Assembly: GCA_029861955.1 (NCBI GenBank)
Contig: JAOTYK010000007.1
Location: 60,938 to 124,937 of the forward strand
DNA length: 64,000 bases
From: Acidobacteriota bacterium
GTDB taxonomy: Bacteria > Acidobacteriota > Polarisedimenticolia > Polarisedimenticolales > Polarisedimenticolaceae
Direction: 5' to 3'
Of this stretch, positions 13,041-64,000 are shown piece by piece. Position 1 is the stretch's first letter. Each line of letters begins with the position of its first letter. A model generated the notes under the pieces. The model was not told where the DNA came from, made no database searches, and worked only from the letters and a program-made list of their open reading frames with translations. A program made the translations under genes and the position numbers.

Positions 13041-13081
13041 CTCCGTACGCGAAAGCCCATAGTTCAGGAGAGCATCGAGCC

Positions 13082-14320: not shown

Positions 14321-15612
14321 CCGTCTTTCTCCGTGTCGAAATCGCCCATGGCGCTGCCCATGGCCTCGATCGTCTGATCGATCTGCCCCTCGTCGTGGGC
14401 GAGTGAGATGAACGCCGCCTCGAACGCCGACGGGGCAAGGTAGACGCCACGCTGAAGCATGCCGTGAAAGAACCTGGCGTATCGAGCCGTGTCGGCTGCC
14501 ACGGCGTGACTGAAATTGCTAACCGCATCGTTCGTAAAAAAGCCCGTCAGCATCGAACCGACCCGGTTGATCCGGAGCGGAACCCCGTGGCGCTCGGCCG
14601 CCTCGTTCCAGCCCCGATGCAGTCGATCCGCCGTTCGCTCCAGCCTGTCGTAAGCACCGTCCTCATCGAGCAACGCCAGCGTCGCGAGACCTGCGCGCAT
14701 GGCCAACGGGTTCCCCGATAGCGTTCCCGCCTGATAGACCGGACCGTTGGGCGCAACCTGCTCCATGAGATCGGCTCGTCCACCATAGGCAGCTACCGGC
14801 AAGCCGCCACCGATAACCTTCCCGAAACAACTGAGGTCCGGCTGGACGCCGAATCGGTTCTGGGCGCCTCCGCGGTCCACCCGGAACCCCGTCATCACCT
14901 CATCCAGGATCAGCAGAGCCCCGTGATCGGCTGTAACGCGTCGCAACGCTTCCAGGTACCCCTCACTCGGTGGGATGACGCCCATGTTTCCTGCCACCGG
15001 CTCAACGATCATGCAGGCGATTTCTTCGCCATGGCGAGAGAACAGTTCTTCAACGGAGGGCACGTCATTGAACGGAACGACGTGGGTCAGCTCCGCAAGT
15101 GCCTTCGGGACACCGGGGCTACCCGGTATCCCCAGCGTCAGCACACCGGAACCCGCCTCGACAAGAAGCGAGTCGAAATGGCCGTGATAGCAACCCTCGA
15201 CCTTGACGATCCGTTCGCGACCGGTCACGCCTCGTGCCAGCCGGATGGCGGACATCGTCGCCTCGGTACCGGTTGAGACGCAGCGAAGACGCTCGCACGC
15301 GGGCACCCGCTCGCAGACGGCCGCCGCCAATCGGGTCTCGAGCTCGCACGGAGCGCCGAACGAGGTTCCCCGACGGGCCTGATCCTGAATCGCCTCGACC
15401 ACCGCGGGGTGCGCGTGACCTGCAATCAGGGGCCCCCAGGACCCGACGTAGTCGATGTACCAGCGGCCGTCGCTGTCCTGAACGCGACAACCCTCGCCCC
15501 GCTCGAGGAACAGCGGTGTTCCACCCACACCCTTGAAAGCCCGGACCGGGCTATTCACACCACCCGCGATATATCGCTGGGCCTCATCGAACAGTCTGCT
15601 CATGCGTATCAA
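14317..15612 (-). CDS. hemL: glutamate-1-semialdehyde 2,1-aminomutase
   Basis: SPVRAFKGVGGTPLF, ILDEVMTGFR and CFGKVIGGGLP (PLP Lys) are class III aminotransferase motifs of the HemL type. Confidence 0.95.
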   Translation of the reverse strand: MIRMSRLFDEAQRYIAGGVNSPVRAFKGVGGTPLFLERGEGCRVQDSDGRWYIDYVGSWGPLIAGHAHPAVVEAIQDQARRGTSFGAPCELETRLAAAVCERVPACERLRCVSTGTEATMSAIRLARGVTGRERIVKVEGCYHGHFDSLLVEAGSGVLTLGIPGSPGVPKALAELTHVVPFNDVPSVEELFSRHGEEIACMIVEPVAGNMGVIPPSEGYLEALRRVTADHGALLILDEVMTGFRVDRGGAQNRFGVQPDLSCFGKVIGGGLPVAAYGGRADLMEQVAPNGPVYQAGTLSGNPLAMRAGLATLALLDEDGAYDRLERTADRLHRGWNEAAERHGVPLRINRVGSMLTGFFTNDAVSNFSHAVAADTARYARFFHGMLQRGVYLAPSAFEAAFISLAHDEGQIDQTIEAMGSAMGDFDTEKDG

Positions 15613-15623
15613 AACCCCCGCGT

Positions 15624-16127
15624 CTATTCGAACAACAGTCCCTGATGCATCGGCGTCGGTCGCCGGTTCGGGCCCGGTCGGTAGTACCCCAGCAATCGCG
15701 CCCGATCGAGGATCCTACGATAGAAACGACGGAACCGAATCGAGTGGTCGAAATGCCGGAGATGCGCCAATTCGTGGCACAACGTATCGGCCAGGCTGGA
15801 CTCCTTGAGGAGCCTTCCCGTACGTGCATGACGCAACCGAATGCGGATGACGCCGTCGGCGTAACAAATCCCGTAGTGGCCGTGAGCATCGTCCCGTTCC
15901 TTCTCGATCGCGCTGTAGCGCAGCGAGAAGTGGGTGGCAAGATCCTCCGCCCATCGTCGCAGCTTCTCCATCGTCTCGATGTCCTGCTCGATCTTCACCT
16001 GACCGTGGGTGGTTGCCGCACGAACCGGCTGACGGGCCATCGCCCGGAGACGCGCCTGGATCGATGGCTGTAACGATCCCTCGAATTCCTTGAATAGGCC
16101 GGGAGAGCCCAGATCTTTGCGAGGCAT
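15624..16127 (-). CDS. zinc metalloprotease-like protein (DUF45/YgjP-like, HExxH)
   Basis: C-terminal CHELAHLRHFDHSIRFRRFY matches the HExxHx5H..F pattern of the DUF45/M48-related family. 167 aa. Confidence 0.7.
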   Translation of the reverse strand: MPRKDLGSPGLFKEFEGSLQPSIQARLRAMARQPVRAATTHGQVKIEQDIETMEKLRRWAEDLATHFSLRYSAIEKERDDAHGHYGICYADGVIRIRLRHARTGRLLKESSLADTLCHELAHLRHFDHSIRFRRFYRRILDRARLLGYYRPGPNRRPTPMHQGLLFE

Positions 16128-16133
16128 GGTGTC

Positions 16134-17114
16134 CTAGCCTCGGTTTAGTTGCCGCGCGGCCTCCCGCGCGTGGTACGTCAAGATCAGGTCGGCCCCGGCT
16201 CTGCGAATCGATGTCAGCGTTTCCATCACGACACGGTCACGGTCGATCCAGCCGGCGTTGGCCGCGGCAGCGACCATCGCGTACTCGCCACTGACGTTAT
16301 ATGCCGCGACGGGAACACCGAAGGTCTGCTTCACGCTCTGAATCACATCCAGGTACGCCAGCGCCGGCTTGACCATCACGATATCGGCCCCCTCGTCCAG
16401 ATCCAGCCCCACTTCCCCGAGGGCCTCGTCCCCGTTCGCCGGGTCCATCTGGTAGGAGAGTCGATCGCCGAACTGCGGCGCAGAATCGGCAGCCTCGCGA
16501 AACGGGCCGTAGTAGGCCGACGCGTACTTCGCCGCGTACGAAAGGAGGATTCGATCCGCAAACGCCGCCTCGTCGAGGGCCTCTCGAATCGCGCCAACGC
16601 GTCCATCCATCATGTCCGATGGAGCAATGACATCCGCGCCGGCGGCCGCGTGGGAGACTGCGACCCGGGCCAGCAACTGGAGCGTCGGGTCGTTGGCGAC
16701 GACCCCGTCTTCGATCACCCCACAGTGGCCGTGATCCGTGTACTCGCAGAGACAGACGTCGGTCATCACGACGAGCTCCGGGTACGACCGCTTCAACTCG
16801 CGGACCGCACGCTGAACGGCCGCCTCGTCGTCCCAGGCTTCGCTACCCTCGGCGTCCTTACGATCCGGGAGGCCGAAGAGCAGGACCGAACGAATCCCCT
16901 CTTCGATCGCCGCCCCTACCTCTTCGACCAGCCTGTCGACCGAGAAGTGGAATTGACCGGGCATGGAAGGGATCTCGTCGCGAACACCCTGGCCCTGCCG
17001 AACAAAGAGCGGGTAGACCAGATCGTCGTTATGGAGTCGCGTCTCGCGAACCAGACTCCGCAACCACGGGGTTCGTCGAAGTCGGCGCGGCCGTCGAGTG
17101 GGGAAGTCAGCCAT
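16134..17114 (-). CDS. hemB: porphobilinogen synthase (delta-aminolevulinate dehydratase), Zn type
   Basis: [15 protein letters not shown] and the Cys-rich zinc site [17 protein letters not shown] 17114 ([14 protein letters not shown]) fits the family better than the track start at 17162. Confidence 0.94.
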
Positions 17115-17122
17115 CGCGCGGG

Positions 17123-17296
17123 TCAGTCGTCCGGCTCTGCGAAGAAGAAATACTCCGCACATCCGGTACTGCAGAACGGTCGCCCGCTCATGCGATGTTC
17201 GTGTTCTTCACAGAAGTGCCTAAAACAGACCGGACACTTGTGTAGATTGACATCCTCGGACTCGACCGAGCACTTGAAACAGACGACTTTATGCAC
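17123..17296 (-). CDS. small Cys/His-rich (zinc-ribbon-like) protein, 57 aa
   Basis: Below the track size cutoff. Hand translation from GTG 17296 gives [57 protein letters not shown]. It has two CxxC pairs plus three more Cys, and AAGGGA lies 9 nt upstream. It ends 8 nt before the hemB start. An in-frame stop upstream at 17324-17326 bounds it. Confidence 0.5.
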
Positions 17297-17358
17297 GCTG
17301 CCCGTTCCCTTGCGCTCAGATCGTCACGGGGCTAAAGTAGCGGCCCGCGTGAGATCGG

Positions 17359-17433
<75 letters not shown>

Positions 17434-20693: not shown

Positions 20694-21820
20694 GGGTTCC
20701 CTCTGTCTGGTGCCACTCGTAGCTTCTCGAGCGCGTGTTCGTGATTCCAGTCGGCGATGAACAACTGGGCGCCATCCCTCCCCCCACTCTTACGTGACGA
20801 GGTCCAGATCAGCGTCCGACCATCCGGCGACGGAACGGGAAGACCGTCGAACCCATCGGTCTGGGTCACGCGTACCGGCTGCTTTAGTCCGTCGACGTCG
20901 ACGATAAACAGTTCGAAATTGCCGAAGCCATGCTTGTTGGAGGTGAAAATGACGTAGGCGCCCGACGGATGGGGGTACGGCGCCCAACTCATCGATTCGA
21001 ACTCGGTGAGCTGTCGAGGATTGCCACCGTCGGCATCCATCATCCAGATGTCCGCCACGAGGCCGTCAGGAGAAAACCGGCGCCAGACGATCGACTTGCC
21101 ATCCTGGGTGAAGAAAGGCCCTCCGTCGTAGCCGTCGACATCGGTGAGTCGTTGGACGGATTGGCCGTCCGATCGCATCCGATAGATCTCGTTGTAGAAC
21201 GCCGGGTCGACTTCGAGTTGGCGCTGCACTTCCGCTTCTTTCTCGGCGGCCCCGTAGGCGTGACGATTCGACGCAAAGACGATCCAACGACCATTCGGGC
21301 TTACGCTGCCCTCGGCATCGTAGCCACGTGTCCGGGTGAGTCGACGCGATTCACCCTCGGAGGCGGTGACGTAGATCTCCATCTCCGGGTCGTAGTCCCA
21401 GGCGTAGCGACGCTCCTCTCCCGACTCGCGAAGTTCGAACTCCTCTTTCTGCTGCGCGGAGCTTCGGGGGTCGTGGTGCGTGGAGGAATAGAGGATCTCC
21501 TCGCCGCTCCCCATGTAATACGCGCAGGTCGTCTTCCCGACTCCGTTCGACACCCTGCGGGTCTCGCCATCGGTCAGGTCCATCTCGTAAATCTGGTAGA
21601 AGGGGTTTTCCGTCTCCCTCTCGCTCTGGAACACCAGCCGGGATCCATCGGCCGAGAAGTAGCCTTCGCCGGCCCGTCGTCCTTCGAAAGTGAGTTGGCG
21701 GACGCGGTCCAGGAAGCGGCCCTCGGCCGCCGGGTCACCGGCGGGCTCGTCAGAGCCGTAACCCGCTGGCATAAAAAGAATTAGCAGGACTCCGACCAAC
21801 CACCACGCTTGAAACTTCAT
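20690..21820 (-). CDS. TolB-like / PD40 beta-propeller repeat protein, secreted
   Basis: Signal peptide MKFQAWWLVGVLLILFMPAGYG, then repeated PD40-like segments (FSADGSRLVF, SPNGRWIVF, TQDGKSIVW, SPDGRTLIW). Confidence 0.8.
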   Translation of the reverse strand: MKFQAWWLVGVLLILFMPAGYGSDEPAGDPAAEGRFLDRVRQLTFEGRRAGEGYFSADGSRLVFQSERETENPFYQIYEMDLTDGETRRVSNGVGKTTCAYYMGSGEEILYSSTHHDPRSSAQQKEEFELRESGEERRYAWDYDPEMEIYVTASEGESRRLTRTRGYDAEGSVSPNGRWIVFASNRHAYGAAEKEAEVQRQLEVDPAFYNEIYRMRSDGQSVQRLTDVDGYDGGPFFTQDGKSIVWRRFSPDGLVADIWMMDADGGNPRQLTEFESMSWAPYPHPSGAYVIFTSNKHGFGNFELFIVDVDGLKQPVRVTQTDGFDGLPVPSPDGRTLIWTSSRKSGGRDGAQLFIADWNHEHALEKLRVAPDRGNP

Positions 21821-21987
21821 CGCAATCTCTCCTGAGGCAAGACCGGGATTCTATCCGAGGCCCGCCCCGGCGGCACCCGACCCAAGGGGAGCCTGGAGGT
21901 ATTTTGCCTTTTCTGGCCTCCGCCTACGCAAAAAAGTCGCGGCGCGGCCGTCATCGGCGGGTATATAAAACGGACGCGGAGATTCTC

Positions 21988-24900
21988 ATGTCCTTATCGT
22001 GCGCGCCCGGAACGGCGCGTCTTTCGATCTTGATGGCGTTGTTCGCCCTGGCGATCCTGGGGTCGGCCTCCGCCCAGGAGATCACGCTCGTCGACGAGGG
22101 CACGACCACCCGCTACCTGTCCAACGTGACCGACCCCGGCCTGGGCCAGGCGTGGACACAATTCGCGTTCGATGACAGCGGCTGGACGGTGGGCGCGTTG
22201 GGCGTCGGGTATGAATCCAGCACCGGGGCCGAGGCTCTGATCACCACGCCCGTGCCCGTCGGGTCGTGGTCGACGTACACGCGAACGACGTTCAACCTCG
22301 CCGACACCTCGGCGATCCAGAATCTTGTTTTCGGTGTCGACTACGACGATGGCGTCGTCGCGTGGATCAATGGCGTGGAGGTCTACCGCTCCCCCAACAT
22401 GCCGTCGGGCCCTCCTCCCTGGAACGCCGCGCCGTCGACCCACGAATCCAGTAACGGCGCCACACCGTCGTTCGAGGAGACCGACGTCACCACAACGGGG
22501 GGTCCGGTCCTCCAGAACGGAGCCAATACTCTCTCCGTGGGTGTCTGGAACACGTCCGGGGCGTCCTCGGATCTGGTTCTCGTTCCGCGTCTCCGCGCCA
22601 ACGTTCCGGCCACGGTGGTTCGAGGTCCGTATTTACAGATGGTGGGCGACGATTCGATCACGATTCAGTGGCGCACCAGCGTGGCAACCACCAGTGGCGT
22701 CGATTTCGGGACGTTCCCGGGCAACCTCAGTTCCAGCGTCTTGAACTTCTCGACGACTGTCGATCATTCGATCCAGCTAAACGGCCTGGGCGGCGACCAG
22801 ACTTACTACTACGCCGTCGGCACCGTGACGCAACAGCTCGTCGGCAACGACAGCGACCATGTGTTTCGCACGGCGCCGGCGAATCGGGCCGCCATCCCAC
22901 TCCGCATTTGGGTCCTCGGCGACTCGGGTACCGGCGACGCCAACGCCACGGCGGTCAAGGACGCGTACACGACGTTTACATCAGGTGCGAGCACCGATTT
23001 GATCTTCCTGCTGGGTGACAATGCATACCCGAACGGAACCGACCCCGAATATCAGACCAAGCTCTTCGACATGTACGACGATTATTTCGTCTCGACGCCG
23101 GTCTGGTCGGCGATCGGCAATCACGATGCCGCCAGCTCCAACAGCGTCATGCAGGACGGCCCCTATTTCGAGATCTTCGAGTTCCCGACGATGGCGGAGC
23201 TGGGCGGCGTGAGTTCAGGCACCGAGTCTTATTACTCGTTCGACTACGCCAACGTCCACATCGTCGTCCTCGACTCATCCGGCAATCCGCGAATCCCCAC
23301 GTCGCCGATGATGACCTGGCTGGACGCCGACCTGGCGTCGACGGACCAGGACTGGATCATCGCGTTCTGGCACCATCCCCCGTACAGCAAGGGATCCCAC
23401 GACTCGGACACGGAACTCACGATGATCGAGATGCGTCAGTGGGGCGTGCCGATTCTCGACGCCTACGGGGTCGATCTGACGCTCACCGGCCACAGCCACT
23501 CCTACGAACGCAGCTACCTGATCGACGGCCACTACGGTGACTCGACGACATTCATGGAGTCCATGAAGGTCGAGTCGGGCGACGGCGACCCGATGGGTGA
23601 CGGCGAGTACGTCAAGAATGCCGTCGGCCCACTGGCCCACTCCGGCACGGTCCACGTCGTTGCCGGTAGTTCGGGGAAGATCACCGGTGGCGCGCTAGAC
23701 CATCCCGCGATGCTCGAGTCCCTGAACGAGTTGGGATCGTTGGTGATCGAGATCAACAACAACCGCCTCGACTTGAGCTTCCTCAATTCCGCCGGCGCTG
23801 TCAGCGATACCTTCGGCATGTTGAAGGGTTCGGGCTGTTTCGATCCCGATCTCGACGGCATCTGCGCGGAATCCGACAACTGCCCGGACGTCGCCAATGG
23901 ATCGCAGGCCGACCAGGATGCGGACGGTGTCGGAGATGCATGCGATCCCTGTCCGACCGATGTCGGTAACGACGTGGATGGGGACGGACTCTGTGCGAGC
24001 GTCGACAACTGCGACCTGAACGCGAACCCTTTACAGGAAGACAACGACGGCGATGGGAAGGGCGATGTCTGCGACCGGGACGACGACAACGATGGCGTCC
24101 GCGACAACATCGACTGTGCGCCGCTGATCGCCGGCGTCTCGACGCTTCCTGGTGACATTCCCTACGTGACGCAAGATCGGCAGGGCCCGGCTCTGAGGTT
24201 GATCTGGACCCGAGCGGTCCAGGGCCACACCAGCAACGTGTTTCGGGCGACCCGGTCGGCCGGTGGCGCGGTCGGCTTTTTCGACTGCCTCGCACCCGAT
24301 ATTCCGCAGATCGACCTCGTCGATAACGACACGCCACCGGCGGGGGACGTCTACCTCTATCTCGTTAACGGTCACAACGTCTGTGGCGACGGTGGGCTCG
24401 GTGTTGATGGCTTGGGCACGCCGCGCGCCGATCCCGGCGGGTGCTTCGCCGTCTCCGGCGACTTCGATGCCGACGCGGTGATCGATGCGGAAGACAACTG
24501 CTCGTTGATCGCCAACGCCGCTCAGGCCGACTCCGATGGTGACTTCGTCGGAAATGCCTGCGACAACTGTCAGTGGGTCGCCAACCCGCAACAGATCGAC
24601 TCCGACGACGACGGCTACGGGAACGGTTGTAGCGCGACCGACGCCGACGGGGATACGGTCCCGGACGTCGACGATAACTGCACGTTCGTCTTCAACGACA
24701 CTCAGGATGACACCGATTTCGACGGAAACGGTGATGCCTGCGACGTATGCCCCCTGGACAACCCCGGTGACCCGGACGGCGATGGTCTGTGCAGCGCAGA
24801 CGACAACTGTCCCCTGATCGCCAACCCGGGCCAGGAGGACGAGGACGTCGACAACCTGGGCGATGCTTGCGACCTGTGCCCTGGTGACCCGGTCAACGAC

Positions 24901-25761
24901 GTCGATGGCGACGGACTCTGCCAGGGGGACGACAACTGTCCCACCGTCGCCAACCCGGGTCAGAAGGACCTTGACGCCGACGGTGCCGGCGATTCGTGCG
25001 ATGTATGTCCGGCGGACCCCAATGACGACGCGGACGCCGACGGGTTCTGCGGTGACGTCGACAACTGCCAGACGGTCTCCAACCCGACCCAGGCCGACGC
25101 CGATGCCGATGGTGTCGGCGACGCTTGTGACGCGTGCCCGGCCGATCCCGACAACGACGTGGATGGCGACGGAGTCTGTGGCGATGTCGACAACTGCCCC
25201 AACGTCGCCAATCCGGGTCAGGAGGACGCGGACACCGATGGCGTCGGTGACGCCTGCGAAAATCCCGACGCCGATGGCGACGGCGTGCTGGATTTCATGG
25301 ATAACTGTCCCGCGGTGTTCAACCCTCCCCAGACCGACTCCGACCTCGACGGTATCGGTGATGCCTGCGATCTCTGCCCCGCCGATCCGCTGGACGACAT
25401 CGACGGCGACGGTGTCTGCGGCGACGTCGATAACTGCCCCGACACCTTCAACCCGGGACAGGAGGATGCCGACAGCAACGGTATCGGCGACGCCTGTCAG
25501 GCGATGAACGACGTGGATGGCGACGGAATCGCCGACGGATTGGACAATTGTCCTGCGGTGGCCAATACCAACCAGGCCGACGTCGATCTGGACGGGATCG
25601 GAGACGTCTGTGACAACTGCCCGCTCGTGAACAACACGCTGCAGACCGACAACGACGGCGACGGCGTCGGCAATCCCTGTGACAACTGTCGCAACGACCC
25701 CAACCCCGATCAGGCCGATTCCGACGGCGACGGGAAGGGCGATGTGTGTGACTCAAACTGA
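21988..25761 (+). CDS. giant secreted protein: beta-sandwich N-domain + purple-acid-phosphatase-like metallophosphoesterase + thrombospondin type-3 repeats
   Basis: Signal peptide ...LGSASAQE. The full PAP motif set is present: GDSGTGD, GDNAY, GNHD, WHHPPYS, GHSHSYER. The C-terminal 640 aa or so are DxDxDGxGDxCDxCP calcium-loop repeats. The track ORF starts at 21904; ATG 21988 gives the signal peptide. Confidence 0.85.
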   Translation: MSLSCAPGTARLSILMALFALAILGSASAQEITLVDEGTTTRYLSNVTDPGLGQAWTQFAFDDSGWTVGALGVGYESSTGAEALITTPVPVGSWSTYTRTTFNLADTSAIQNLVFGVDYDDGVVAWINGVEVYRSPNMPSGPPPWNAAPSTHESSNGATPSFEETDVTTTGGPVLQNGANTLSVGVWNTSGASSDLVLVPRLRANVPATVVRGPYLQMVGDDSITIQWRTSVATTSGVDFGTFPGNLSSSVLNFSTTVDHSIQLNGLGGDQTYYYAVGTVTQQLVGNDSDHVFRTAPANRAAIPLRIWVLGDSGTGDANATAVKDAYTTFTSGASTDLIFLLGDNAYPNGTDPEYQTKLFDMYDDYFVSTPVWSAIGNHDAASSNSVMQDGPYFEIFEFPTMAELGGVSSGTESYYSFDYANVHIVVLDSSGNPRIPTSPMMTWLDADLASTDQDWIIAFWHHPPYSKGSHDSDTELTMIEMRQWGVPILDAYGVDLTLTGHSHSYERSYLIDGHYGDSTTFMESMKVESGDGDPMGDGEYVKNAVGPLAHSGTVHVVAGSSGKITGGALDHPAMLESLNELGSLVIEINNNRLDLSFLNSAGAVSDTFGMLKGSGCFDPDLDGICAESDNCPDVANGSQADQDADGVGDACDPCPTDVGNDVDGDGLCASVDNCDLNANPLQEDNDGDGKGDVCDRDDDNDGVRDNIDCAPLIAGVSTLPGDIPYVTQDRQGPALRLIWTRAVQGHTSNVFRATRSAGGAVGFFDCLAPDIPQIDLVDNDTPPAGDVYLYLVNGHNVCGDGGLGVDGLGTPRADPGGCFAVSGDFDADAVIDAEDNCSLIANAAQADSDGDFVGNACDNCQWVANPQQIDSDDDGYGNGCSATDADGDTVPDVDDNCTFVFNDTQDDTDFDGNGDACDVCPLDNPGDPDGDGLCSADDNCPLIANPGQEDEDVDNLGDACDLCPGDPVNDVDGDGLCQGDDNCPTVANPGQKDLDADGAGDSCDVCPADPNDDADADGFCGDVDNCQTVSNPTQADADADGVGDACDACPADPDNDVDGDGVCGDVDNCPNVANPGQEDADTDGVGDACENPDADGDGVLDFMDNCPAVFNPPQTDSDLDGIGDACDLCPADPLDDIDGDGVCGDVDNCPDTFNPGQEDADSNGIGDACQAMNDVDGDGIADGLDNCPAVANTNQADVDLDGIGDVCDNCPLVNNTLQTDNDGDGVGNPCDNCRNDPNPDQADSDGDGKGDVCDSN

Positions 25762-25860
25762 CTGACGGATCTTTATCGCGGAAATTCAACGGATATACAG
25801 ATTGGACGGTTCCGCAATTTGGGGGGTGGTGCGCTCCGTCTTTCTTCGTACATAGTAAGG

Positions 25861-26730
25861 ATGCGCGCGGGGACCCCCATTATAAGTATTATAATTGCAA
25901 TCCGAATTGCTTTGATCACCGGGATGCTGCTGGCATCCGCGGCGCTTCTCGCACATCCGGGAATCGACCAACAGATCGTCGATGTAACGGCTCGACTCGA
26001 AGCCGCCCCCAGGGACGCGTCGCTCTACATCAAACGGGGCGAGTTGCATCGCATCCACCGTGAGTGGAATCTCGCACAGAAGGATTTCGATCGTGCCGCG
26101 CGTCTTCAGCAGGATCGTCGCATCGCGCATTTCCATATCGCACGCCTGCAACTGGATCGAGGCGAGCCGAAGAAGGCACTCCGACATGTGAATCTCTACC
26201 TCCGCCACGAATCGAATTCTCTCTCCGGCCACGTGATCCGCGGACAAGCGCTGGCGGAACTCGGTCGCTATCGAGCGGCGGCCGACGCCTACACGCTGGC
26301 TATCGACGGGGTCGTTGAAGGACGGCCACGACCGGATGACTACCTGGAACGAGCCAGAGCTCTGCGATCGGCCGGCGCACAGCACTACGATGAGGCGATT
26401 CGGGGTCTGGAAGATGGCGTCAAACGACTTGGGGCCCCTGTCACGTTGCTACGGCTGGCGATCGAGATCGAGTTGGAGATGGGTCGCACCGATGCAGCAC
26501 TTGCACGCCTCGATCGAATCGCCGACTCTGCCGCCCGTAAGGAACGCTGGCTCAGCGAACGTGGCGACATCCTGACCGACGCCAATCGACCGACGGAGGC
26601 CAGACAGGCCTACCAGGCCGCGCTGAGTGCGATCGGCCGACTCTCCGAGAACCGACGCAGAAACACCGCGACGGAACGACTGGAAGAACATGTTCGAAGC
26701 GCGCTGGAACAGCTGGGAAGTGACGGATAG
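25861..26730 (+). CDS. membrane-anchored/secreted TPR-repeat protein
   Basis: N-terminal hydrophobic segment IISIIIAIRIALITGMLLASAALLA, then TPR-like helical repeats (LYIKRGELHRIHREWNLAQKDFDRAARL...). It ends 3 nt before the next gene. Confidence 0.7.
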   Translation: MRAGTPIISIIIAIRIALITGMLLASAALLAHPGIDQQIVDVTARLEAAPRDASLYIKRGELHRIHREWNLAQKDFDRAARLQQDRRIAHFHIARLQLDRGEPKKALRHVNLYLRHESNSLSGHVIRGQALAELGRYRAAADAYTLAIDGVVEGRPRPDDYLERARALRSAGAQHYDEAIRGLEDGVKRLGAPVTLLRLAIEIELEMGRTDAALARLDRIADSAARKERWLSERGDILTDANRPTEARQAYQAALSAIGRLSENRRRNTATERLEEHVRSALEQLGSDG

Positions 26731-26733
26731 AGA

Positions 26734-29700
26734 ATGGGCGCACGCGTGTACAGACGGCTGATGATTGGCTTGCTCCTTGTTCTAGGGGTCGGCGTCGCGT
26801 TTGCCGAGACGATCGTCGTCGACTTCGGTGGCCCGACGCTGTACAAGGCCAACGACACGGACCCGGCCCTGGGGCTGACCTGGATCGCGCCTGGGTTTGA
26901 CGATGCCCTGTGGGATCCCGGCAACTTCGGTGTCGGCTATGAGACCGGCAGCGGCGCCGAGAATCTGATCCAGTCGATGATCCCTTCGACCAGCCGGTCG
27001 GCCTACACTCGAACCACCTTCAACGTGGCCGACAAGACATCGATCTTCAACATGATTCTCGGCCTCGACTACGACGACGCGGTCATCGTCTGGATGAACG
27101 GACAAGAGGTCTATCGCTCTCCGAATATGCCGCCCGGGCCACCACTCTGGAACACATCGGCGACGGCGGGGCACGAATCCAGCAATGCAGCGGCCCCCGT
27201 GTACGAGCTGTTCGACATCACGTCGATGGCGCTCCCCCACGTGGTCGATGGCGAAAACGTTCTGGCAATCGGCCTGTGGAACCACGGAACTGGCTCCAGT
27301 GACTTCGTGATTGCCCCGCAACTCGTTCTGAATCGGGTCGCCACCGTGACCCGTGGACCGTACCTGCAGATGGCGACACCCGACAGCGTTCGCATTCGAT
27401 GGCGAACCAACATTCCGGTGACGTCCCGTGTGCTCTACGGAGATGCCCCCGGCAACCTGCTCACTCCAGAGATGGACCCCATCCTCAAGCCGGACCACGA
27501 CGTCGAACTGACGGGGCTTCTTGCGGACACCCAGTATTTCTACGCCGTCGGCGACTCATCGACGATCCTCGCCGGTGACGACGCGGATCATCATTTCTTC
27601 ACGGCACCCCTGGTCGGCGTCGCGAAACCGATGCGCATCTGGGTCACCGGCGACTCCGGGACGGCCAATCTCGCTGCTCAGGATGTCCGCGATGCGTACC
27701 TGGCGTTTACCGCCGGAACTCGAACGGATTTCTGGCTGCTGCTGGGGGACAACGCGTATCCGTCTGGAACCGACCAGGAATACCAGGCGGCGTTCTTCGA
27801 CATGTACCCGACGATCCTTCGTCAGGTCAGCTCGTGGTCGACGATCGGCAATCATGACATCGTGAATCGAGGGTTGGAGACCGGCGCCTACTTCGACATC
27901 TTTTCCTTACCGTCAAACGCCGAGGCCGGCGGCCTGGTGTCGGGTACCGAGGCGTATTACTCATTCGATTACGGGAATATCCACTTCATCGTGCTGGACT
28001 CGTCGGGCACCGACCGGTCCGGCACGGGCACGATGATGACCTGGCTCGAGGACGACATCGCCGACACCAGTCAGGACTGGGTCGTCGCGTTCTGGCATCA
28101 CCCGCCGTACAGCAAGGGCTCTCACGATTCCGACACCGAAACGCCACTAATCGAGATGCGGACCAACGCGCTGCCCATCCTCGAGGACTACGGCGTCGAT
28201 CTTGTCCTTTCGGGACACAGCCACTCTTACGAACGGTCGTACCTCATCGACGGTCATTACGGAGACTCCACGACCTACGACGACCAGACGATGGAGTTGA
28301 ACGGCGGCGATGGACGGGTTACCGGCGACGGCCCGTATATCAAGACGCTCCTCGGTCCGGACCCGCATGCCGGGTCGGTCTACGTCGTGGCCGGAAGCTC
28401 GGGGCAACTGGGTGGCGGGACCCTGGATTACCCGGCCCACTACTTCGGGCTCCTCGAGCGCGGTTCGGTGGCGCTGGATGTGAATGGCCAACGACTCGAC
28501 GCGACGTTCATCGATCGGTTCGGAGCCGTTCGCGATACATGGACCATGATCAAGGGTCCCAATCCGTTGATGCCCGACGCGGAGTTCTCGACGTCGGCGG
28601 TACTAGGATTGATGCCGTTGAGCATCGACTTCTTCGACCTCTCGACCAACACGCCGACGAGTTGGGCCTGGGACTTCGAGAACGACGGCCAGCCGGACAG
28701 CGTGGCTCAGAACCCGACGCACTCCTACACCAACCCCGGGATTTACACGGTGGCCCTCGATGCGGGCAACATCTACGGCGTCGACGCCGAGATCAAGATC
28801 GACCAGGTCTGTGTCTACGAGAATGACCCGTCCCTGGTCGATGGCGCTGCATTCGAGTCATCGACCCGCCTGATCTGGAACGGCTACGCCGCCGGTCAGG
28901 CCTACGACACGATCCGTGGCGGGTTGCTGGACCTGCAGACCCTCGGGCTGAGCGGCACGCCGCTGACCTGCATCGAGAACGACGATGCCGATCTCCACGC
29001 AGATGACGCCACCCTCCCCGCAGCCGGTGATGGCTTCTTCTATCTGGTTCGCGCCGGCGACTGCGCAAACCGTACCGGAAGCTTCGACACGACGGGAATC
29101 GGTCAGCTCGAGTCTCGCGATCCGGCGCTCCAGGCCTCGGGCTCGGTCTGCAGCTGCGCCACCGGTGACGATATCGACGGCGACGCTCTCTGCGACCTGT
29201 TCGACGACTGCAAGGATACGGACGGCGATGGCTTCGGAAACCCGGGCTACCCTCAGGACACCTGCCCCACCGATAACTGCCCGGACATCAACAACGTTCC
29301 GCAGACCGATAGCGACATGGATCTCCTGGGTGATGCCTGCGATGTTTGCGCCCTGGATCCGGATAATGACATCGATGGCGATGGGGCCTGCGGTGATGTC
29401 GACAACTGTCCGGTCACCTCCAACCCGACACAGCTGGACACCGACAGTGACGGACCGGGCGACGCCTGTGACACTTGCACCGACACCGACGGGGACGGCT
29501 TCGGCAATCCGGGGTTCCCCGTCAACAGCTGCCCGGACGACAACTGCCCGATCGTTTCGAACGTCGGCCAGGGTAATGCCGACGGCGACATGCTGGGTGA
29601 CGCGTGCGATGCCTGCCCCGCTGACGCCGACAACGATCTGGACGGCGACACGATCTGTGGCGACGTCGATAATTGCCCGACGGTCTCCAACATCGGGCAG

Positions 29701-32382
29701 ACGGATCTCGACGGCGATCTTCTCGGCGACGCCTGTGACACGTGTCCCAACGATTTCAATAACGATGAGGACAGTGACACGATCTGTGGCGACGTGGACA
29801 ACTGTCCCACCGTCTCCAACATCGGCCAGGCGGATTTCGACGGCGATCTTCTCGGCGACGCCTGTGACGCGTGCCCCAACGACTTCAATAATGACGAGGA
29901 TTCCGACACGATCTGTGGCGATGTCGACAACTGCCCCACCGTCTCCAATGTCGGGCAGGGCAACGCCGATGGGGACGCCAACGGCGACGCCTGTGACATC
30001 TGTCCCAACGATGCCAACGACGACGAGGACGGCGACACGATCTGTGGCGATGTCGACAACTGCCCGACCATTTCAAACGTCGGGCAGGCGAATCTCGACG
30101 GCGATCTTCTCGGCGACGCCTGTGACGCGTGTCCCAACGATTTCAATAACGATGAAGACAGTGACACGATCTGTGGCGATGTCGACAACTGCCCCACCGT
30201 CTCCAACGTCGGCCAGTCCAACCTGGACGGCGATCTTCTCGGCGACGCCTGCGACACGTGTCCCAACGACTTCAACAATGACGAGGATTCCGACACGATC
30301 TGTGGCGATGTCGACAACTGCCCCACCGTCTCCAACGTCGGTCAGGGCAACGCCGATGGGGACGCCAACGGCGACGCGTGCGACATCTGCCCCAACGATG
30401 CCAACGACGACGAGGACGGCGACACGATCTGCGGCGACGTCGACAACTGCCCAACCATTTCAAACGTTGGCCAGGCCAACGCGGATGGCGACCTCCTCGG
30501 CGACGTCTGCGACAGCTGCCCCAACGACAGCGACAACGATCAGGATTCCGACACGATCTGCGGCGATGTCGACAACTGCCCAACGGTCGCAAACCTCGGT
30601 CAGGAGAATCTCGACGGGGACCTGCTGGGTGATGTCTGTGACACCTGTCCCAACGATAGCGACAACGACCAGGACTCCGACACGATCTGCGGCGACGTCG
30701 ACAACTGCCCGACCGTCTCCAACATGGGCCAGGGAAATGCCGACGGGGACGCCAACGGCGATGCCTGCGATATATGTCCCAACGATGCCAACGATGACGA
30801 GGATTCCGACACAATCTGCGGTGACGTCGATAACTGTCCGACCATCTCCAACGTTGGCCAGGCCAACGCCGATGGCGACCTGCTTGGCGACGCATGCGAT
30901 ACCTGCCCCAATGACAGCGATAACGATCAGGACGGCGACACGATCTGCGGCGACGTCGACAACTGCCCGGCAGTCTCCAACATCGGCCAGGCGAATCTCG
31001 ACGGCGATCTACTCGGCGATGCTTGTGACGCCTGCCCCAACGACATCAACAACGACGAAGATAGCGACACGATCTGTGGCGATGTCGACAACTGTCCCAC
31101 CGTGTCAAACGTCGGCCAGGGCAATGCCGACGGCGACGCCAACGGCGACGCCTGTGACGTCTGCCCCAACGACGCTAACGACGACGAGGATTCCGACACG
31201 GTCTGTGGCGATGTGGACAACTGTCCCACCACGTCAAATACCAACCAGCTCGACACCGACCTCGATACGCTTGGCGATGTATGTGATTCGTGCCCCAACG
31301 ATGCGGATAACAACATCGACGGCGACAATTTCTGTGGCGATGTGGACAACTGCCCATTCGTGCCGAACAACAACCAGCGTGACGACGACGGAGATCTCCT
31401 GGGCGACGCCTGTGACACGTGTCCCAACGACTTCAATAATGACGAGGATTCCGACACGATCTGTGGCGACGTCGACAACTGCCCCACCGTCTCCAATGTC
31501 GGTCAGTCCGACCTGGACGGCGATCTTCTCGGCGACGCCTGCGACACGTGTCCCAACGACTTCAACAATGACGAGGATTTCGACACAATCTGCGGCGACG
31601 TCGACAACTGCCCCACCGTCTCCAATACCGGCCAGGGCAACGCCGACGGCGATGCCGACGGCGACGCCTGCGACAGCTGCACCGACACCGATGGTGACGG
31701 ATTCGGCAACCCGGCGTTCCCGGCCAACAGCTGTCCCGACGATAACTGTCCGCTCATGGCGAATGCAGGCCAGGAAGACAACGAGTCCGACGGTCAGGGA
31801 GACATCTGCGATCCCGACGATGACAACGATGGCGTGATCGATCTTGACGACTGCGCCTCGTTCACGGCCGGTGTCGCCAATGATCCGCTCCCGATCGGTC
31901 CGTCGCTACGACTGAGGGGCGACATCGGCCAGACGCTGACCTGGACGAAGAGCTTCCAGGGCCACGTCAGCAACGTCTATGCGAGCCTGCGAGTGGGGAG
32001 CGGGCCGTTCGTGTTTCAGATGATCTGCTGGCGTTCGGAAGTGGTTAGGAACTCTACGACTATCAACACAGTTCCCGATCCCGGCGAGATGTGGTTCTAC
32101 CTGATCGGGGCTCGCAACAGCTGTGACGATTCGGCGATCGGCCAGGGATCGGATGGAACGCCAACCCAGTGGTCCGGGGCCTGTCCGTTCGGGGATAACG
32201 ATACCGACAGCGACACGATCCTCGATCTGGAGGATAACTGCTCGACGGTGGCGTCCCTCGATCAGACCGATGACGACGGTGACTTCATCGGGAACCTGTG
32301 CGACAACTGTCCGGCGACGTTCAACCCGGGGCAGGTCGACACGGACAACGATACGATCGGAGATGCCTGCGATCCGGGCTAG
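26734..32382 (+). CDS. giant secreted protein (1882 aa): beta-sandwich N-domain + PAP-like metallophosphoesterase + PKD domain + long thrombospondin type-3 repeat array
   Basis: Signal ...GVGVAFAE. The N-domain and phosphoesterase are clearly paralogous to 21988-25761 (GDSGTAN, GDNAY, GNHD, WHHPPYS, GHSHSYER). A PKD-like segment WAWDFENDGQPDSVAQNPTHSYTNPGIYTV lies at about 28600-28815. After that come arrays of about 43-aa Cys/Asp repeats. Confidence 0.88.
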   Translation: MGARVYRRLMIGLLLVLGVGVAFAETIVVDFGGPTLYKANDTDPALGLTWIAPGFDDALWDPGNFGVGYETGSGAENLIQSMIPSTSRSAYTRTTFNVADKTSIFNMILGLDYDDAVIVWMNGQEVYRSPNMPPGPPLWNTSATAGHESSNAAAPVYELFDITSMALPHVVDGENVLAIGLWNHGTGSSDFVIAPQLVLNRVATVTRGPYLQMATPDSVRIRWRTNIPVTSRVLYGDAPGNLLTPEMDPILKPDHDVELTGLLADTQYFYAVGDSSTILAGDDADHHFFTAPLVGVAKPMRIWVTGDSGTANLAAQDVRDAYLAFTAGTRTDFWLLLGDNAYPSGTDQEYQAAFFDMYPTILRQVSSWSTIGNHDIVNRGLETGAYFDIFSLPSNAEAGGLVSGTEAYYSFDYGNIHFIVLDSSGTDRSGTGTMMTWLEDDIADTSQDWVVAFWHHPPYSKGSHDSDTETPLIEMRTNALPILEDYGVDLVLSGHSHSYERSYLIDGHYGDSTTYDDQTMELNGGDGRVTGDGPYIKTLLGPDPHAGSVYVVAGSSGQLGGGTLDYPAHYFGLLERGSVALDVNGQRLDATFIDRFGAVRDTWTMIKGPNPLMPDAEFSTSAVLGLMPLSIDFFDLSTNTPTSWAWDFENDGQPDSVAQNPTHSYTNPGIYTVALDAGNIYGVDAEIKIDQVCVYENDPSLVDGAAFESSTRLIWNGYAAGQAYDTIRGGLLDLQTLGLSGTPLTCIENDDADLHADDATLPAAGDGFFYLVRAGDCANRTGSFDTTGIGQLESRDPALQASGSVCSCATGDDIDGDALCDLFDDCKDTDGDGFGNPGYPQDTCPTDNCPDINNVPQTDSDMDLLGDACDVCALDPDNDIDGDGACGDVDNCPVTSNPTQLDTDSDGPGDACDTCTDTDGDGFGNPGFPVNSCPDDNCPIVSNVGQGNADGDMLGDACDACPADADNDLDGDTICGDVDNCPTVSNIGQTDLDGDLLGDACDTCPNDFNNDEDSDTICGDVDNCPTVSNIGQADFDGDLLGDACDACPNDFNNDEDSDTICGDVDNCPTVSNVGQGNADGDANGDACDICPNDANDDEDGDTICGDVDNCPTISNVGQANLDGDLLGDACDACPNDFNNDEDSDTICGDVDNCPTVSNVGQSNLDGDLLGDACDTCPNDFNNDEDSDTICGDVDNCPTVSNVGQGNADGDANGDACDICPNDANDDEDGDTICGDVDNCPTISNVGQANADGDLLGDVCDSCPNDSDNDQDSDTICGDVDNCPTVANLGQENLDGDLLGDVCDTCPNDSDNDQDSDTICGDVDNCPTVSNMGQGNADGDANGDACDICPNDANDDEDSDTICGDVDNCPTISNVGQANADGDLLGDACDTCPNDSDNDQDGDTICGDVDNCPAVSNIGQANLDGDLLGDACDACPNDINNDEDSDTICGDVDNCPTVSNVGQGNADGDANGDACDVCPNDANDDEDSDTVCGDVDNCPTTSNTNQLDTDLDTLGDVCDSCPNDADNNIDGDNFCGDVDNCPFVPNNNQRDDDGDLLGDACDTCPNDFNNDEDSDTICGDVDNCPTVSNVGQSDLDGDLLGDACDTCPNDFNNDEDFDTICGDVDNCPTVSNTGQGNADGDADGDACDSCTDTDGDGFGNPAFPANSCPDDNCPLMANAGQEDNESDGQGDICDPDDDNDGVIDLDDCASFTAGVANDPLPIGPSLRLRGDIGQTLTWTKSFQGHVSNVYASLRVGSGPFVFQMICWRSEVVRNSTTINTVPDPGEMWFYLIGARNSCDDSAIGQGSDGTPTQWSGACPFGDNDTDSDTILDLEDNCSTVASLDQTDDDGDFIGNLCDNCPATFNPGQVDTDNDTIGDACDPG
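29538..31680 (+). repeat. in-frame tandem array of 129-nt (43-aa) units with a 387-nt higher-order period
   Basis: The anchor gacac(g/a)atctg(t/c)ggc recurs at 29647, 29776, 29905, 30034, 30163, 30292, 30421, 30550, 30679, 30808, 30937, 31066, 31195, 31453 and 31582, with a diverged copy at 31324. Spacing is exactly 129 nt. Compared units look roughly 90% or more identical by eye. Confidence 0.92.
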
Positions 32383-32672
32383 TCGGTCAGCCTGGACCAC
32401 TCGTCGGGTGTCATGGTTCGCAGCGCCAGCGCATGAATCATCGTCCCCATCCGTCTACCGAGCGACTCGTAGACCCGTCGATGCTGCTCGACTCGTGTGA
32501 GTCCGGCGAACGACGTGCTAACGAGGGTCACCGTGTAGTGGCCGCCGCCGGTCACATTACCGGCGTGGCCCGCATGGTGGGCGCTGTCGTCCTGGATCCG
32601 CAAGACCTCCGGGGTGAACGCGGCGGTCAGGACGCCTTCGATCTCTCGGGCATTCTCGGTCGGATCGCTCAT
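32379..32672 (-). CDS. BolA family protein
   Basis: IQDDSAHHAGHAG..HYTVTLVSTSFAGLTRVEQHRRVYESL..IHALALRTMTPDEW is the BolA/YrbA pattern. ATG 32672 overlaps the upstream stop (ATGA). Confidence 0.88.
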   Translation of the reverse strand: MSDPTENAREIEGVLTAAFTPEVLRIQDDSAHHAGHAGNVTGGGHYTVTLVSTSFAGLTRVEQHRRVYESLGRRMGTMIHALALRTMTPDEWSRLTD

Positions 32673-34060
32673 TGGGTGCTCCACTGGTCGCCGTCCTCAC
32701 CCACTCTTCGGGCCGAGCCGGATCGCTCGAGCAACAGCAGATGAGAAAGGGTCTGACGACGGATCAGGGGTAGAGGCATCTCTGGCAGATCATCGTAGGC
32801 CTGGCGTGCGATCCGATCCAGTTCCAGCGGTGCATCGCCAAGCTGCACGCGGATCTTGCTCTCCCGTTGGCGACGATGCTCCAGCACCCGCTCCAGCGTC
32901 TTACCTGGTAGCGGCGTGCCATGTCCGGGGAGGAGCGTCTTGCATCCAAGCTCCTTCATCCGCTCGAGCGACTGGAGGTAGTCCCCCATATCGCCGCTCT
33001 CGGGATCGATGAGGATCGTGGAAACGCTACTCACGAGGTCTCCCGTCAGCAACAGTCCGCGATCGACCAACTCGAAGGCCATGTGGCCGACGGCGTGGCC
33101 CGGTGTGTGATGGGCACGAAGCGTGATTCCGGCCAGATCGATCGTCTCACCGTCGGCAATCGTCAGGGTTCGAAGATCGCCGAGACGATCTCGCAACGGC
33201 TCGAGGGTCGCCTCGTGAGCGCAGACCGGTACATCGAGGCGTGTGGCAATCTGCGCGACTCCATCAACATGATCCTGATGATGATGGGTCAGCAAGACCA
33301 TCCGCAGCCGGTCGCCATCGGAACAGCGTCGCTCGATCACACCGGCGAGCCGATCCAGCTCTTCCGGCTCGTCGGATCCCGGATCCACGATGGCGAAGAA
33401 CCTCCCGCCGGGAAACCAGACATTGGTATGGGTTGCAGGTGGGAGGGTTGCCGTCGACAACGGCACCATCCAGGTCCCCGGCGTGAACTCGATTCGCGGA
33501 GTTCGCTCTTCTCGTTGGTTGGCCTGCCGGATCGCTTCCGCCAGCTGCTCGAGAGAGGCACTCTCGTGGCGTGCGAGACAACGGAGGATCGGCAAGACCG
33601 GCGGTGGCACGCGGCACTCCCCACGCTCCCATGCTTCCAGAACGGTCTCCGCCAATTCGAAGCGTGCCGAGTCCAGCTCGTCGGTCATCGGTGCGATCTC
33701 GTCGCGTAACGCCTCGACACGATGGACAAAAAAGCGATTCATGAAACGAACCGGGAACATCGGCGGCGTGATTCGATCCCCGGCGTCGATCCACTCGGTA
33801 GCCTCAACCTGCAGACCGAGCTCCTCGTCCAACTCCCTGGAGGCGGCCGCCCGAAAGGGATCGGCGGTCTCTCGATCGGCGGCGTCGATCGTCCCTCCCG
33901 GAAACGAGAGGTGGCCCGGCATGAATCGGGTGGATCGCGATCGTCGAGCCAGCAGGACCCGATCTCGCCCATCCTCGTCGCGACGCACGAGTATTGCGGC
34001 GGCGCTGTCCCTCGGTTCGGCGGGACGGGCGCGAGGGATACCGTCAGGCAGCTCGCTCAA
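32669..34060 (-). CDS. fusion protein: CoA-pyrophosphatase-type Nudix hydrolase + MBL-fold hydrolase
   Basis: N-terminal LLARRSRSTRFMPGHLSFPGG fits the CoA-Nudix signature LLTxR[SA]x3Rx3Gx3FPGG, followed by the Nudix box ASRELDEELGL. The C-terminal half has LLTHHHQDHVDG (HxHxDH) plus later His/Asp ligands. TTG start overlaps the upstream stop. Confidence 0.85.
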   Translation of the reverse strand: MSELPDGIPRARPAEPRDSAAAILVRRDEDGRDRVLLARRSRSTRFMPGHLSFPGGTIDAADRETADPFRAAASRELDEELGLQVEATEWIDAGDRITPPMFPVRFMNRFFVHRVEALRDEIAPMTDELDSARFELAETVLEAWERGECRVPPPVLPILRCLARHESASLEQLAEAIRQANQREERTPRIEFTPGTWMVPLSTATLPPATHTNVWFPGGRFFAIVDPGSDEPEELDRLAGVIERRCSDGDRLRMVLLTHHHQDHVDGVAQIATRLDVPVCAHEATLEPLRDRLGDLRTLTIADGETIDLAGITLRAHHTPGHAVGHMAFELVDRGLLLTGDLVSSVSTILIDPESGDMGDYLQSLERMKELGCKTLLPGHGTPLPGKTLERVLEHRRQRESKIRVQLGDAPLELDRIARQAYDDLPEMPLPLIRRQTLSHLLLLERSGSARRVGEDGDQWSTQ

Positions 34061-45889: not shown

Positions 45890-46024
45890 CGACTTCGGCT
45901 CCTGACTGGAAGGGTGTACGACGCGACGGGCAAGCGTAGCACCGGGCAGCACACCGACGCATCCCTGAGGCCCAAGGCTGGGAAAAGCACCGCGTATCTT
46001 CTATCCTTGGACGCGGAGGATCCG

Positions 46025-63981: not shown

Positions 63982-64000
63982 CCTCTGGGCGACTGAAAAC

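Follow-up and report, generated by a model that had tools for sequence, protein, structure and literature searches.

A tetratricopeptide repeat protein as conserved partner of secreted purple-acid-phosphatase-type metallophosphoesterases with thrombospondin type-3 tails in an Acidobacteriota genome

Positions 21988-32382 of the DNA analysed here (64,000 nucleotides of an Acidobacteriota bacterium, assembly GCA_029861955.1, contig JAOTYK010000007.1; hereafter the window) are filled by three co-directional open reading frames (ORFs) on the + strand: gene A, a gene for a tetratricopeptide repeat (TPR) protein, and gene B. The two large products are predicted secreted metallophosphoesterases of the purple acid phosphatase (PAP) type with long tails of thrombospondin type-3 (TSP3) repeats. 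We read the locus as a conserved two-component module, in which the TPR protein together with a Sec-exported PAP-type enzyme, here present in two copies, would serve the extracellular hydrolysis of phosphate esters, and we assign this reading a probability of about 0.6. It is carried by the recurrence of the TPR gene beside the same catalytic core in other genomes, and by natural fusions of the two. An earlier note, made from the letters of the window alone, had treated the TPR gene as a passenger between two giant paralogues; its account of the enzymes holds in most respects.

The TPR protein is a conserved partner of the catalytic core

When 80 genome loci around the core were searched with the TPR protein of the window, 52 of them contained a full-length homologue (E-values of 1e-20 to 1e-63), co-directional and within about 700 nt of the core, 37 times upstream and 15 times downstream of it. 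This adjacency spans several phyla and includes cores without the N-terminal jelly-roll domain described below. In the window, the TPR gene and gene B, with a gap of 3 nt, represent the canonical upstream arrangement, and gene A has the less common one with the TPR gene downstream. A third conserved neighbour was not found by all-versus-all clustering of the ORFs from 82 loci (the 80 genome loci and two ENA contigs), in which only the core, the shadow ORFs antisense to it and the TPR protein recurred.

Besides this synteny, six of the 120 top homologues of the core are fusions of both partners (P0025, P0047, P0070, P0078, P0085, P0101). The TPR segment, which matches the window protein with E-values of 1e-28 to 1e-42, is always N-terminal in these fusions, and the core's own signal peptide is missing. 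In an AlphaFold2 (AF2) model of fusion P0085 both parts are confident, with 14 helices and a predicted local distance difference test score (pLDDT) of about 95 in the TPR part. Synteny and natural fusions are strong evidence for a functional link between TPR protein and core. Instead of a passenger, the TPR gene is a conserved partner, which changes the unit of function to a two-gene module.

The TPR family comprises 530 clusters at E ≤ 1e-30, nearly all of them 270-320 aa long, and the window member matches Pfam TPR_21 (54 bits), TPR_2 (42 bits) and TPR_16 (38 bits). In the family alignment, a hydrophobic segment at the N-terminus precedes a conserved A-x-A-H, and several further conserved blocks lie along the superhelix. 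The position of A-x-A-H after the hydrophobic segment suggests cleavage by signal peptidase, and the mature protein may therefore begin with a histidine. An identical TPR protein has been deposited as 'MAG: Acidobacteriota bacterium' (MAG denoting a metagenome-assembled genome). The start codon is annotated differently in the databases: the NCBI copy (P0121, 268 aa) starts 21 codons later than the ENA call of 289 aa. The 289-aa form holds the basic residue and the hydrophobic segment conserved in the family, and the 268-aa form would lose a usable signal peptide.

At its other end, the TPR gene (25861-26730) terminates with a TAG that is followed, after the 3-nt gap, by the ATG of gene B, and both genes share one reading frame. 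Only this TAG and one codon (AGA) part the two genes (26728-26736), so that a single stop loss or read-through would recreate a TPR-core fusion, with the signal peptide of gene B then internal.

Organization of the locus

The first description of the locus, two co-directional genes of 1257 and 1882 aa with a shared architecture and a TPR gene 3 nt before the second, agrees with the ORFs and their spacing. A GGAG Shine-Dalgarno motif is located 8 nt 5' of gene A, and the independent annotation of an ENA metagenome contig of 204 kb yields identical products for gene A (1257 aa) and the TPR gene (289 aa). Signal peptides are predicted from the sequence on all three proteins, and the GC content is about 0.62. 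The individual features are as follows; YLV designates a domain that is introduced with the tails.

21988..25761, + strand: gene A, predicted 1257-aa secreted PAP-type metallophosphoesterase with TSP3 tail (ORF and translation; Pfam TSP_3, Metallophos and, below cut-off, Pur_ac_phosph_N; same call on ENA contigs)
21988..22074, + strand: gene A, predicted signal peptide, aa 1-29, ending ...LGSASA before QE (read from the sequence)
22075..22611, + strand: gene A, N-domain, putative beta jelly-roll without Pfam match, aa 30-208 (homology to the modelled N-domain of gene B)
22612..23832, + strand: gene A, fn3-like PAP N-domain and catalytic domain, aa 209-615 (GDSG311, GDNAY343, GNHD377, WHHPPYS461, GHSHSYER501)
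23833..24108, + strand: gene A, TSP3 block 1, aa 616-707 (Pfam, repeat register)
24109..24447, + strand: gene A, YLV domain of about 110 aa, aa 708-820 (hidden Markov model (HMM) from the three window copies)
24448..25758, + strand: gene A, TSP3 block 2, aa 821-1257 (Pfam, repeat register)
25861..26730, + strand: predicted exported 289-aa TPR protein, conserved partner of the phosphoesterase core (Pfam TPR_21 and others; synteny; fusions)
26734..32382, + strand: gene B, predicted 1882-aa secreted PAP-type metallophosphoesterase with PKD domain and expanded TSP3 array (ORF, Pfam)
26734..26805, + strand: gene B, predicted signal peptide, aa 1-24, ending ...GVAFA before ET (read from the sequence; N-terminal helix in the model)
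26806..27342, + strand: gene B, N-domain, modelled jelly-roll like that of GH2 N-termini, aa 25-203 (AF2 model, fold search, family alignment)
27343..28563, + strand: gene B, fn3-like PAP N-domain and catalytic domain, aa 204-610 (GDSG306, GDNAY338, GNHD372, WHHPPYS454, GHSHSYER494)
28615..28809, + strand: gene B, PKD domain, aa 628-692 (Pfam PKD_4, E = 2.7e-10)
28810..29151, + strand: gene B, YLV copy 1, aa 693-806 (YLV HMM)
29152..31845, + strand: gene B, TSP3 array of 20 tandem units, aa 807-1704 (tandem repeat scan, register, composition)
31846..32193, + strand: gene B, YLV copy 2, aa 1705-1820 (YLV HMM)
32194..32379, + strand: gene B, two terminal TSP3 repeats, aa 1821-1882, with no sorting tag after them (sequence, repeat register)

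The catalytic core is of the purple acid phosphatase type

All motifs by which the earlier note had recognized the enzymes (GDSG, GDNAY, GNHD, WHHPPYS, GHSHSYER, RGPYLQM, GVGYE, DYDD and EVYRSPNMP) are present, each once per large protein. The domain annotation that it had proposed as a check returned Metallophos (E about 1e-16 in both genes) and TSP_3 in both enzymes and PKD in gene B only, and the described pattern is thereby confirmed well above chance level. Pur_ac_phosph_N remained just under the 30-bit cut-off with 27.3 and 29.2 bits, and despite this score we accept the proposed fn3-like PAP N-domain because the fold search supports the assignment.

A search of the PDB with a single core sequence ranked wheat purple acid phytase highest (E = 6e-23), and PAPs of kidney bean, sweet potato and mammals came next. 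With a profile of 44 family members the E-value was 1e-29, and all five PAP motifs aligned to wheat purple acid phytase (PAPhy). Within the 44-member alignment, D307, D339, N373, H374, H455, H495 and H497 (gene B numbering) are invariant, and Tyr342, which is equivalent to the chromophoric Tyr of PAPs, is at least 90% conserved. The PAP ligand set (D, D, Y, N, H, H, H in GDxG, GDxxY, GNH(D/E), xxxH, GHxH) is complete in both enzymes.

This picture is matched by the predicted structure. The AF2 model of residues 1-629 of gene B (pLDDT 87, predicted template modelling (TM) score, pTM, 0.81) retrieved wheat purple acid phytase (5e-25), other plant PAPs (1e-21) and the phosphatase PhoD (3e-17) in a Foldseek search, and matches to plant high-molecular-weight (HMW) PAPs had TM-scores of 0.6-0.7 when normalized to the target. 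Model and Foldseek also agree on the HMW PAP layout, in which the Metallophos alpha/beta sandwich is preceded by an fn3-like N-domain. Pfam Metallophos, the PDB profile search and the fold search concur with the family assignment made before, and by sequence and modelled fold the catalytic domain is that of a PAP-type binuclear metallophosphoesterase. An Fe(III)-M(II) centre and phosphomonoesterase activity are predicted for the cores of gene A and gene B. Since the catalytic residues are invariant in a family held at 52-60% identity between phyla, selection on catalysis appears to be strong.

We also considered a PhoD-type alkaline phosphatase/phosphodiesterase and rejected it, as the proteins are without a Pfam PhoD match and have the PAP motif set with its Tyr ligand, and the likeness to PhoD is one of fold only.

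Thrombospondin type-3 tails and the YLV domain

For the tails, Pfam TSP_3 gives E-values of 5e-76 in gene A and 1e-65 in gene B, spread over 13-14 stretches, and the family profile, in its columns for the beginning of the tail, matches the type-3 repeat structures of thrombospondin-2 and COMP in the PDB (E = 1e-16 to 1e-18). The earlier identification of the Asp/Cys repeats as thrombospondin type-3 is borne out by these matches, which mark the tail as a true repeat of this kind, and Ca2+ binding is predicted for both window tails. In gene A, the tail (aa 641-1257) has 23.7% Asp, 43 Cys and a net charge of about -141, and is ordered as TSP3 block, YLV domain, TSP3 block. The tail of gene B (24% Asp, net charge about -261) starts with the PKD domain, which Pfam finds in gene B and not in gene A, and continues with YLV, the 20-unit TSP3 array, a second YLV and two final TSP3 repeats. 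Of the units in the array 18 have 43 aa and two have 46 aa, each with four Cys and two Asp-rich loops; on the DNA level the tandem repeat scan finds a period of 129 nt and a super-period of 387 nt.

A second copy of gene B exists on another metagenome contig (L001, ENA ERZ28013244:k141_3669431, positions 10874-16393). Its product has 1839 aa, against 1882 aa for the window protein, and differs from the latter only by the exact deletion of one 43-aa (129-nt) TSP3 unit. The number of units therefore differs between the assemblies, which reflects either copy-number polymorphism or the collapse of near-identical repeats in short-read assembly. The best explanation for the size of gene B is a recent tandem expansion of the 129-nt unit.

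The earlier note had missed the YLV domain, a Cys-containing module of about 110 aa that is characterized by L.W....G...Y...R followed by FYLV.a.n.CG and has one copy in gene A and two in gene B. It has no Pfam match at E-values up to 10 and recurs in about 50 family members, collected by homologue search and from the genome loci, often as the very last domain. The YLV domain could be a binding or anchoring module. A known C-terminal sorting tag is absent from both proteins, which end with ...GDVCDSN and ...GDACDPG and are without a Cys-hydrophobic-basic tag; the statement that neither has a recognizable C-terminal anchor thus stands.

Two names that automatic annotation could attach to these proteins were rejected. 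The NCBIfam model for the MtsC cohesion MYXO-CTERM protein (NF047638) scores 411 bits on gene B against a cut-off of 350, but in 19 repeat stretches and with no MYXO-CTERM; the model for an Omp28-related selenoprotein (NF045500) is matched only in its TSP3-repeat part (model positions of about 270-312, 12-19 stretches). Because the matches come only from TSP3 repeats, both names are false positives. This is an annotation hazard, as NF045500 exceeds its cut-off on both genes and NF047638 on gene B, purely driven by TSP3.

The N-terminal jelly-roll domain

The first domain of the mature enzymes had been described as beta-rich. This is correct, and can be stated more exactly: residues 25-203 or thereabouts of gene B are modelled by AF2 as a beta jelly-roll with pLDDT above 90, which by model and fold search most likely resembles the N-terminal sugar-binding domain of glycoside hydrolase family 2 (GH2). 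Pfam has no match for it even at an E-value of 10. After PAPs and PhoD, Foldseek lists a long run of GH2 glycosidases with E-values around 1e-13, and we infer that these matches cover the jelly-roll and the following Ig/fn3 part, a layout found in the N-terminal sugar-binding region of GH2. The family-invariant residues of the domain include W60, G66, G68, Y69, R93, F96, D112, D114, D115, N122, G123, W139, E148, S149 and N151 (gene B), and the family alignment contains a conserved HESSN loop. Many family members are without the jelly-roll, as their matches begin at residue 200 or so.

Copies of the domain were also seen in tandem in two giant secreted proteins of the Acidobacteria MAG CR_Sed_300A_bin.1 (L008, 425-8986 and 13463-16987), which flank the TPR-phosphatase pair of that MAG. 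The first has 2854 aa with Laminin_G_3 (ConA-like lectin) and MopE-type motifs, the second 1175 aa with MopE motifs, cohesin and dockerin. Because such tandem copies also occur in other giant secreted proteins, the jelly-roll appears to be a mobile extracellular module, for which ligand or surface binding is the natural assumption.

Breadth of the family

A search with the 629-aa core of gene B returned more than 7,500 related proteins among the matches listed, the best one being 61% identical and most of them 52-58%. They are named only 'metallophosphoesterase', 'PKD repeat protein' or 'thrombospondin type 3 repeat-containing protein'. With one genome scanned per species, the core is found in at least 568 species genomes, and among the genomes listed Acidobacteriota are the largest group, ahead of Gammaproteobacteria, Planctomycetota, Verrucomicrobiota, Bacteroidota and others. 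Of the 120 top core matches, 32 contain TSP3-like motifs, and about a quarter of the close relatives have TSP3 or PKD tails; among the genome loci the median tail is about 180 aa, most members are without TSP3, and the tail of gene B is the longest one seen.

Genes A and B had been called paralogous. They are homologous and built from the same parts, but their cores are only 53% identical and not mutual best matches, and both have nearer relatives in other genomes; the paralogy is therefore an old one. A recent tandem duplication is ruled out by the same two findings.

It had further been supposed that no protein with this full architecture is characterized. Literature searches (PAP and TSP3, bacterial PAPs, Acidobacteria PAPs, metallophosphoesterase and TPR) found no paper on a PAP-type family with TSP3 or a TPR partner, and no family member appears to be characterized. 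The architecture itself, however, is not unusual: N-domain, PAP core and PKD/TSP3 tails are abundant in metagenomes and MAGs and a commonplace of the databases. Unusual here are the degree of TSP3 expansion and the arrangement with two enzymes. The parts of the locus are all of known kinds; undescribed are the TPR partnership, the TSP3 expansion, which is extreme and variable, and the two Pfam-less domains (jelly-roll and YLV).

Genomic neighbourhood

The flanks of the locus contain ordinary chromosomal genes (uvrA, panB/C, glmU/S, uvrD, efp, aminotransferases, M28 and M24 peptidases, acyl-CoA dehydrogenase, ftsH). A promoter and terminator scan of 21700-32800 gave counts at or below shuffle expectation, and no Pho-box-like repeat was seen by eye in either intergenic region. 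A small gene of the BolA family (32379-32684, - strand; assigned by Pfam in the gene table of contig L001) runs towards gene B, and the two overlap by 4 nt at the stop codon of gene B.

Two further observations concern more distant parts of the window. From 58000 to 64000 the GC content falls from about 0.63 to 0.56-0.58, and a 437-aa ORF without Pfam match (58929-60242) overlaps the start of an 864-aa TPR-CHAT protein (60199-62793); an acquired island and a defence-type locus are both possible readings of this region. At 16149-17402 the longest ORF is on the + strand and has 417 aa without Pfam match, and the ENA gene call places hemB (ALAD, 326 aa) on the - strand of the same DNA. The + strand ORF is a shadow ORF such as high-GC DNA typically contains.

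Proposed mechanism and alternative readings

For the module, we propose the following sequence of events. After Sec export, the enzyme would fold, form its many disulfides and gain the Fe(III)-M(II) centre outside the cytoplasm, a location suggested by the Sec-type signals and by dozens of disulfides. The TPR protein would likewise act outside the cytoplasm, as a dedicated maturation factor or a stably bound subunit, and by analogy it is probably one of the two. The mature enzyme would then hydrolyse phosphate mono- and/or diesters extracellularly and free orthophosphate, while the jelly-roll may bind a polymeric or glycan substrate or a surface. Loaded with tens of Ca2+, the TSP3 tail could form a stiff and very acidic stalk that spaces the enzyme from, or retains it on, envelope, matrix or mineral surfaces. 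The earlier description as an extracellular, calcium-loaded phosphoesterase is a reasonable one in view of the domain content. A more specific version of the proposal is that the TPR proteins of about 290 aa represent an unrecognized class of dedicated export-side maturation factors, acting as foldase and/or in metal loading, for a large cross-phylum family of Sec-secreted PAP-type enzymes; we put this forward tentatively, as a possibility well short of an even chance.

Several observations weigh against the proposal. In 28 of the 80 loci there is no TPR homologue, and although many of these are short contigs, some have full flanks. The model of fusion P0085 reaches a pTM of only 0.65, and its linker (249-265) is disordered (pLDDT <50). 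The case for a chaperone is built on analogy and on where the TPR segment lies in the fusions, at the N-terminus. Finally, Pfam annotation of about 40 window ORFs found no Pho-regulon or secretion-system genes nearby; since these ORFs are housekeeping genes and unrelated TPR/CHAT proteins only, the context lends no support to phosphate regulation.

With regard to the substrate, it is possible, though rather doubtful, that the enzymes physiologically attack a phosphodiester polymer (extracellular DNA, teichoic-acid-like polymers or phosphoglycans) to which the jelly-roll binds, and not small monoesters. The N-domain most likely resembles the GH2 sugar-binding jelly-roll and occurs in tandem in giant secreted proteins with ConA-like lectin and cohesin/dockerin domains, PhoD as a diesterase with PAP fold is a significant structural match, and the mycobacterial enzyme Rv2577 has diesterase activity (PMC7642983). 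On the other hand, the ligand set including Tyr is that of PAP monoesterases and not of PhoD, the best match is a phytase-type PAP and thus a monoesterase, and many family members are entirely without jelly-roll.

The role of the TPR protein could also be a different one. Somewhat less probable again is that it is a working subunit, such as an adaptor for substrate or surface, a regulator or a membrane anchor, and not a maturation factor. Binding of peptides or partner proteins is typical of TPR superhelices. In the fusions the TPR part stays covalently joined to a complete enzyme via a flexible linker of about 17 residues, which fits a permanent subunit at least equally well, and the unusually long N-terminal hydrophobic stretch of the window protein is a possible signal anchor. 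The family consensus A-x-A followed by H, however, looks like a cleavable signal peptide, and the present data fit the chaperone role equally.

That the proteins are mainly Ca-dependent adhesins or matrix fibres, in line with the adhesin fibres of the earlier note, and have a vestigial or secondary phosphoesterase, seems improbable to us. It would account for two-thirds of gene B being TSP3 repeats, for a repeat number that varies between assemblies as it often does in surface adhesins, and for the MtsC score above cut-off; but the catalytic residues are all invariant at 52-60% identity between phyla, the typical family member has a short tail and no TSP3, and the MtsC match is scattered over the repeats and has no MYXO-CTERM tag. 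A chance neighbourhood of the TPR gene, as a generic protein in a TPR-rich genome (other TPR proteins of the window are encoded at 45425-47212, 55991-57526 and 60199-62793), is effectively refuted by the specific full-length homologues found adjacent and co-directional in 52 of 80 unrelated genomes and by the six N-terminal fusions.

Implications

Nothing is mechanistically surprising yet about the architecture, and it is the two-gene module that gives the locus its interest. Surveys of microbial phosphorus cycling count phoA, phoD, phoX and pafA, and a PAP-type family with thousands of soil and sediment members lies outside that picture. The TPR partner is a concrete and cheap handle for studying this large uncharacterized enzyme family as a pair, and a dependence on it may explain why such enzymes have not been characterized alone. 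In addition, TSP3 expansion and copy-number variation offer a natural system for studying bacterial thrombospondin repeats attached to an enzyme, which may serve as spacer, as store of calcium, or as mineral or matrix anchor.

If the TPR proteins are indeed a class of maturation factors, the family, abundant in Acidobacteriota, Verrucomicrobiota, Planctomycetota and Proteobacteria of soil and sediment, would be a major uncounted route of organic-phosphorus mineralization, the enzymes would be heterologously expressible only when paired with their TPR protein, and the expanded poly-Asp/Ca2+ TSP3 tails could fasten them to calcium or phosphate minerals. Should the enzymes instead prove to be common phosphatases that can do without the TPR protein, the locus would be just another modular secreted hydrolase.

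Comparison with known systems

The best sequence and fold matches of the window cores are the plant HMW PAPs (wheat PAPhy, 6GIT/6GJA; kidney bean PAP, 1KBP), with which they share the fn3-like N-domain, the Metallophos domain and the five motifs including the Tyr, at an identity of only about 17-23%. In contrast to the plant enzymes, the window proteins are bacterial, have a Sec signal and a TPR partner gene, and add the N-terminal jelly-roll, a C-terminal core extension of about 100 aa and the long PKD/TSP3 tails, whereas the insertion of wheat PAPhy after GDxxY is absent.

Among bacterial enzymes, Rv2577/MmpE of Mycobacterium tuberculosis and the 'purple alkaline phosphatase' of Burkholderia cenocepacia are likewise exported and combine a PAP N-domain with Metallophos. 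Rv2577 has 529 aa and a twin-arginine translocation (Tat) signal, and cleaves pNPP and bis-pNPP at pH values from neutral to alkaline; compared by description only, it differs from the window proteins in that no jelly-roll, repeat tail or TPR partner is described (PMC7642983). Rv2577 is the best experimental precedent for the probable activity of the core, and it was the only enzyme that appeared in a literature search for characterized bacterial PAP-like enzymes.

PhoD of Bacillus subtilis (2YEQ) is similar as a secreted phosphatase/phosphodiesterase with a PAP-like fold and an N-terminal beta-sandwich (fold match E = 3e-17). It is exported by Tat and has an Fe/2Ca site. The window proteins, as stated above, differ from it by the PAP motif set with Tyr ligand and by the lack of a Pfam PhoD match.

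For the TPR partner, the lipase foldase Lif, which serves LipA in Pseudomonas and Burkholderia, and N-terminal pro-domain chaperones provide an analogy only. With Lif it shares that a small all-helical, exported or anchored protein is encoded beside a secreted enzyme, and with the pro-domains the position of the TPR segment in the fusions; Lif has no sequence or demonstrated structural kinship to the window TPR protein and is itself not a TPR protein.

The tails, finally, resemble the type-3 repeats of thrombospondin and COMP in their DxDxDGxxDxxD loops stapled by disulfides, and secreted carbohydrases of Saccharophagus degradans are reported to carry TSP3 repeats as well. Compared with thrombospondin, COMP and bacterial TSP3 proteins such as MtsC of Myxococcus, gene B stands out by 20 near-identical tandem double units of 43 aa, a count far above that of the roughly 80 relatives inspected, with no MYXO-CTERM or other anchor.

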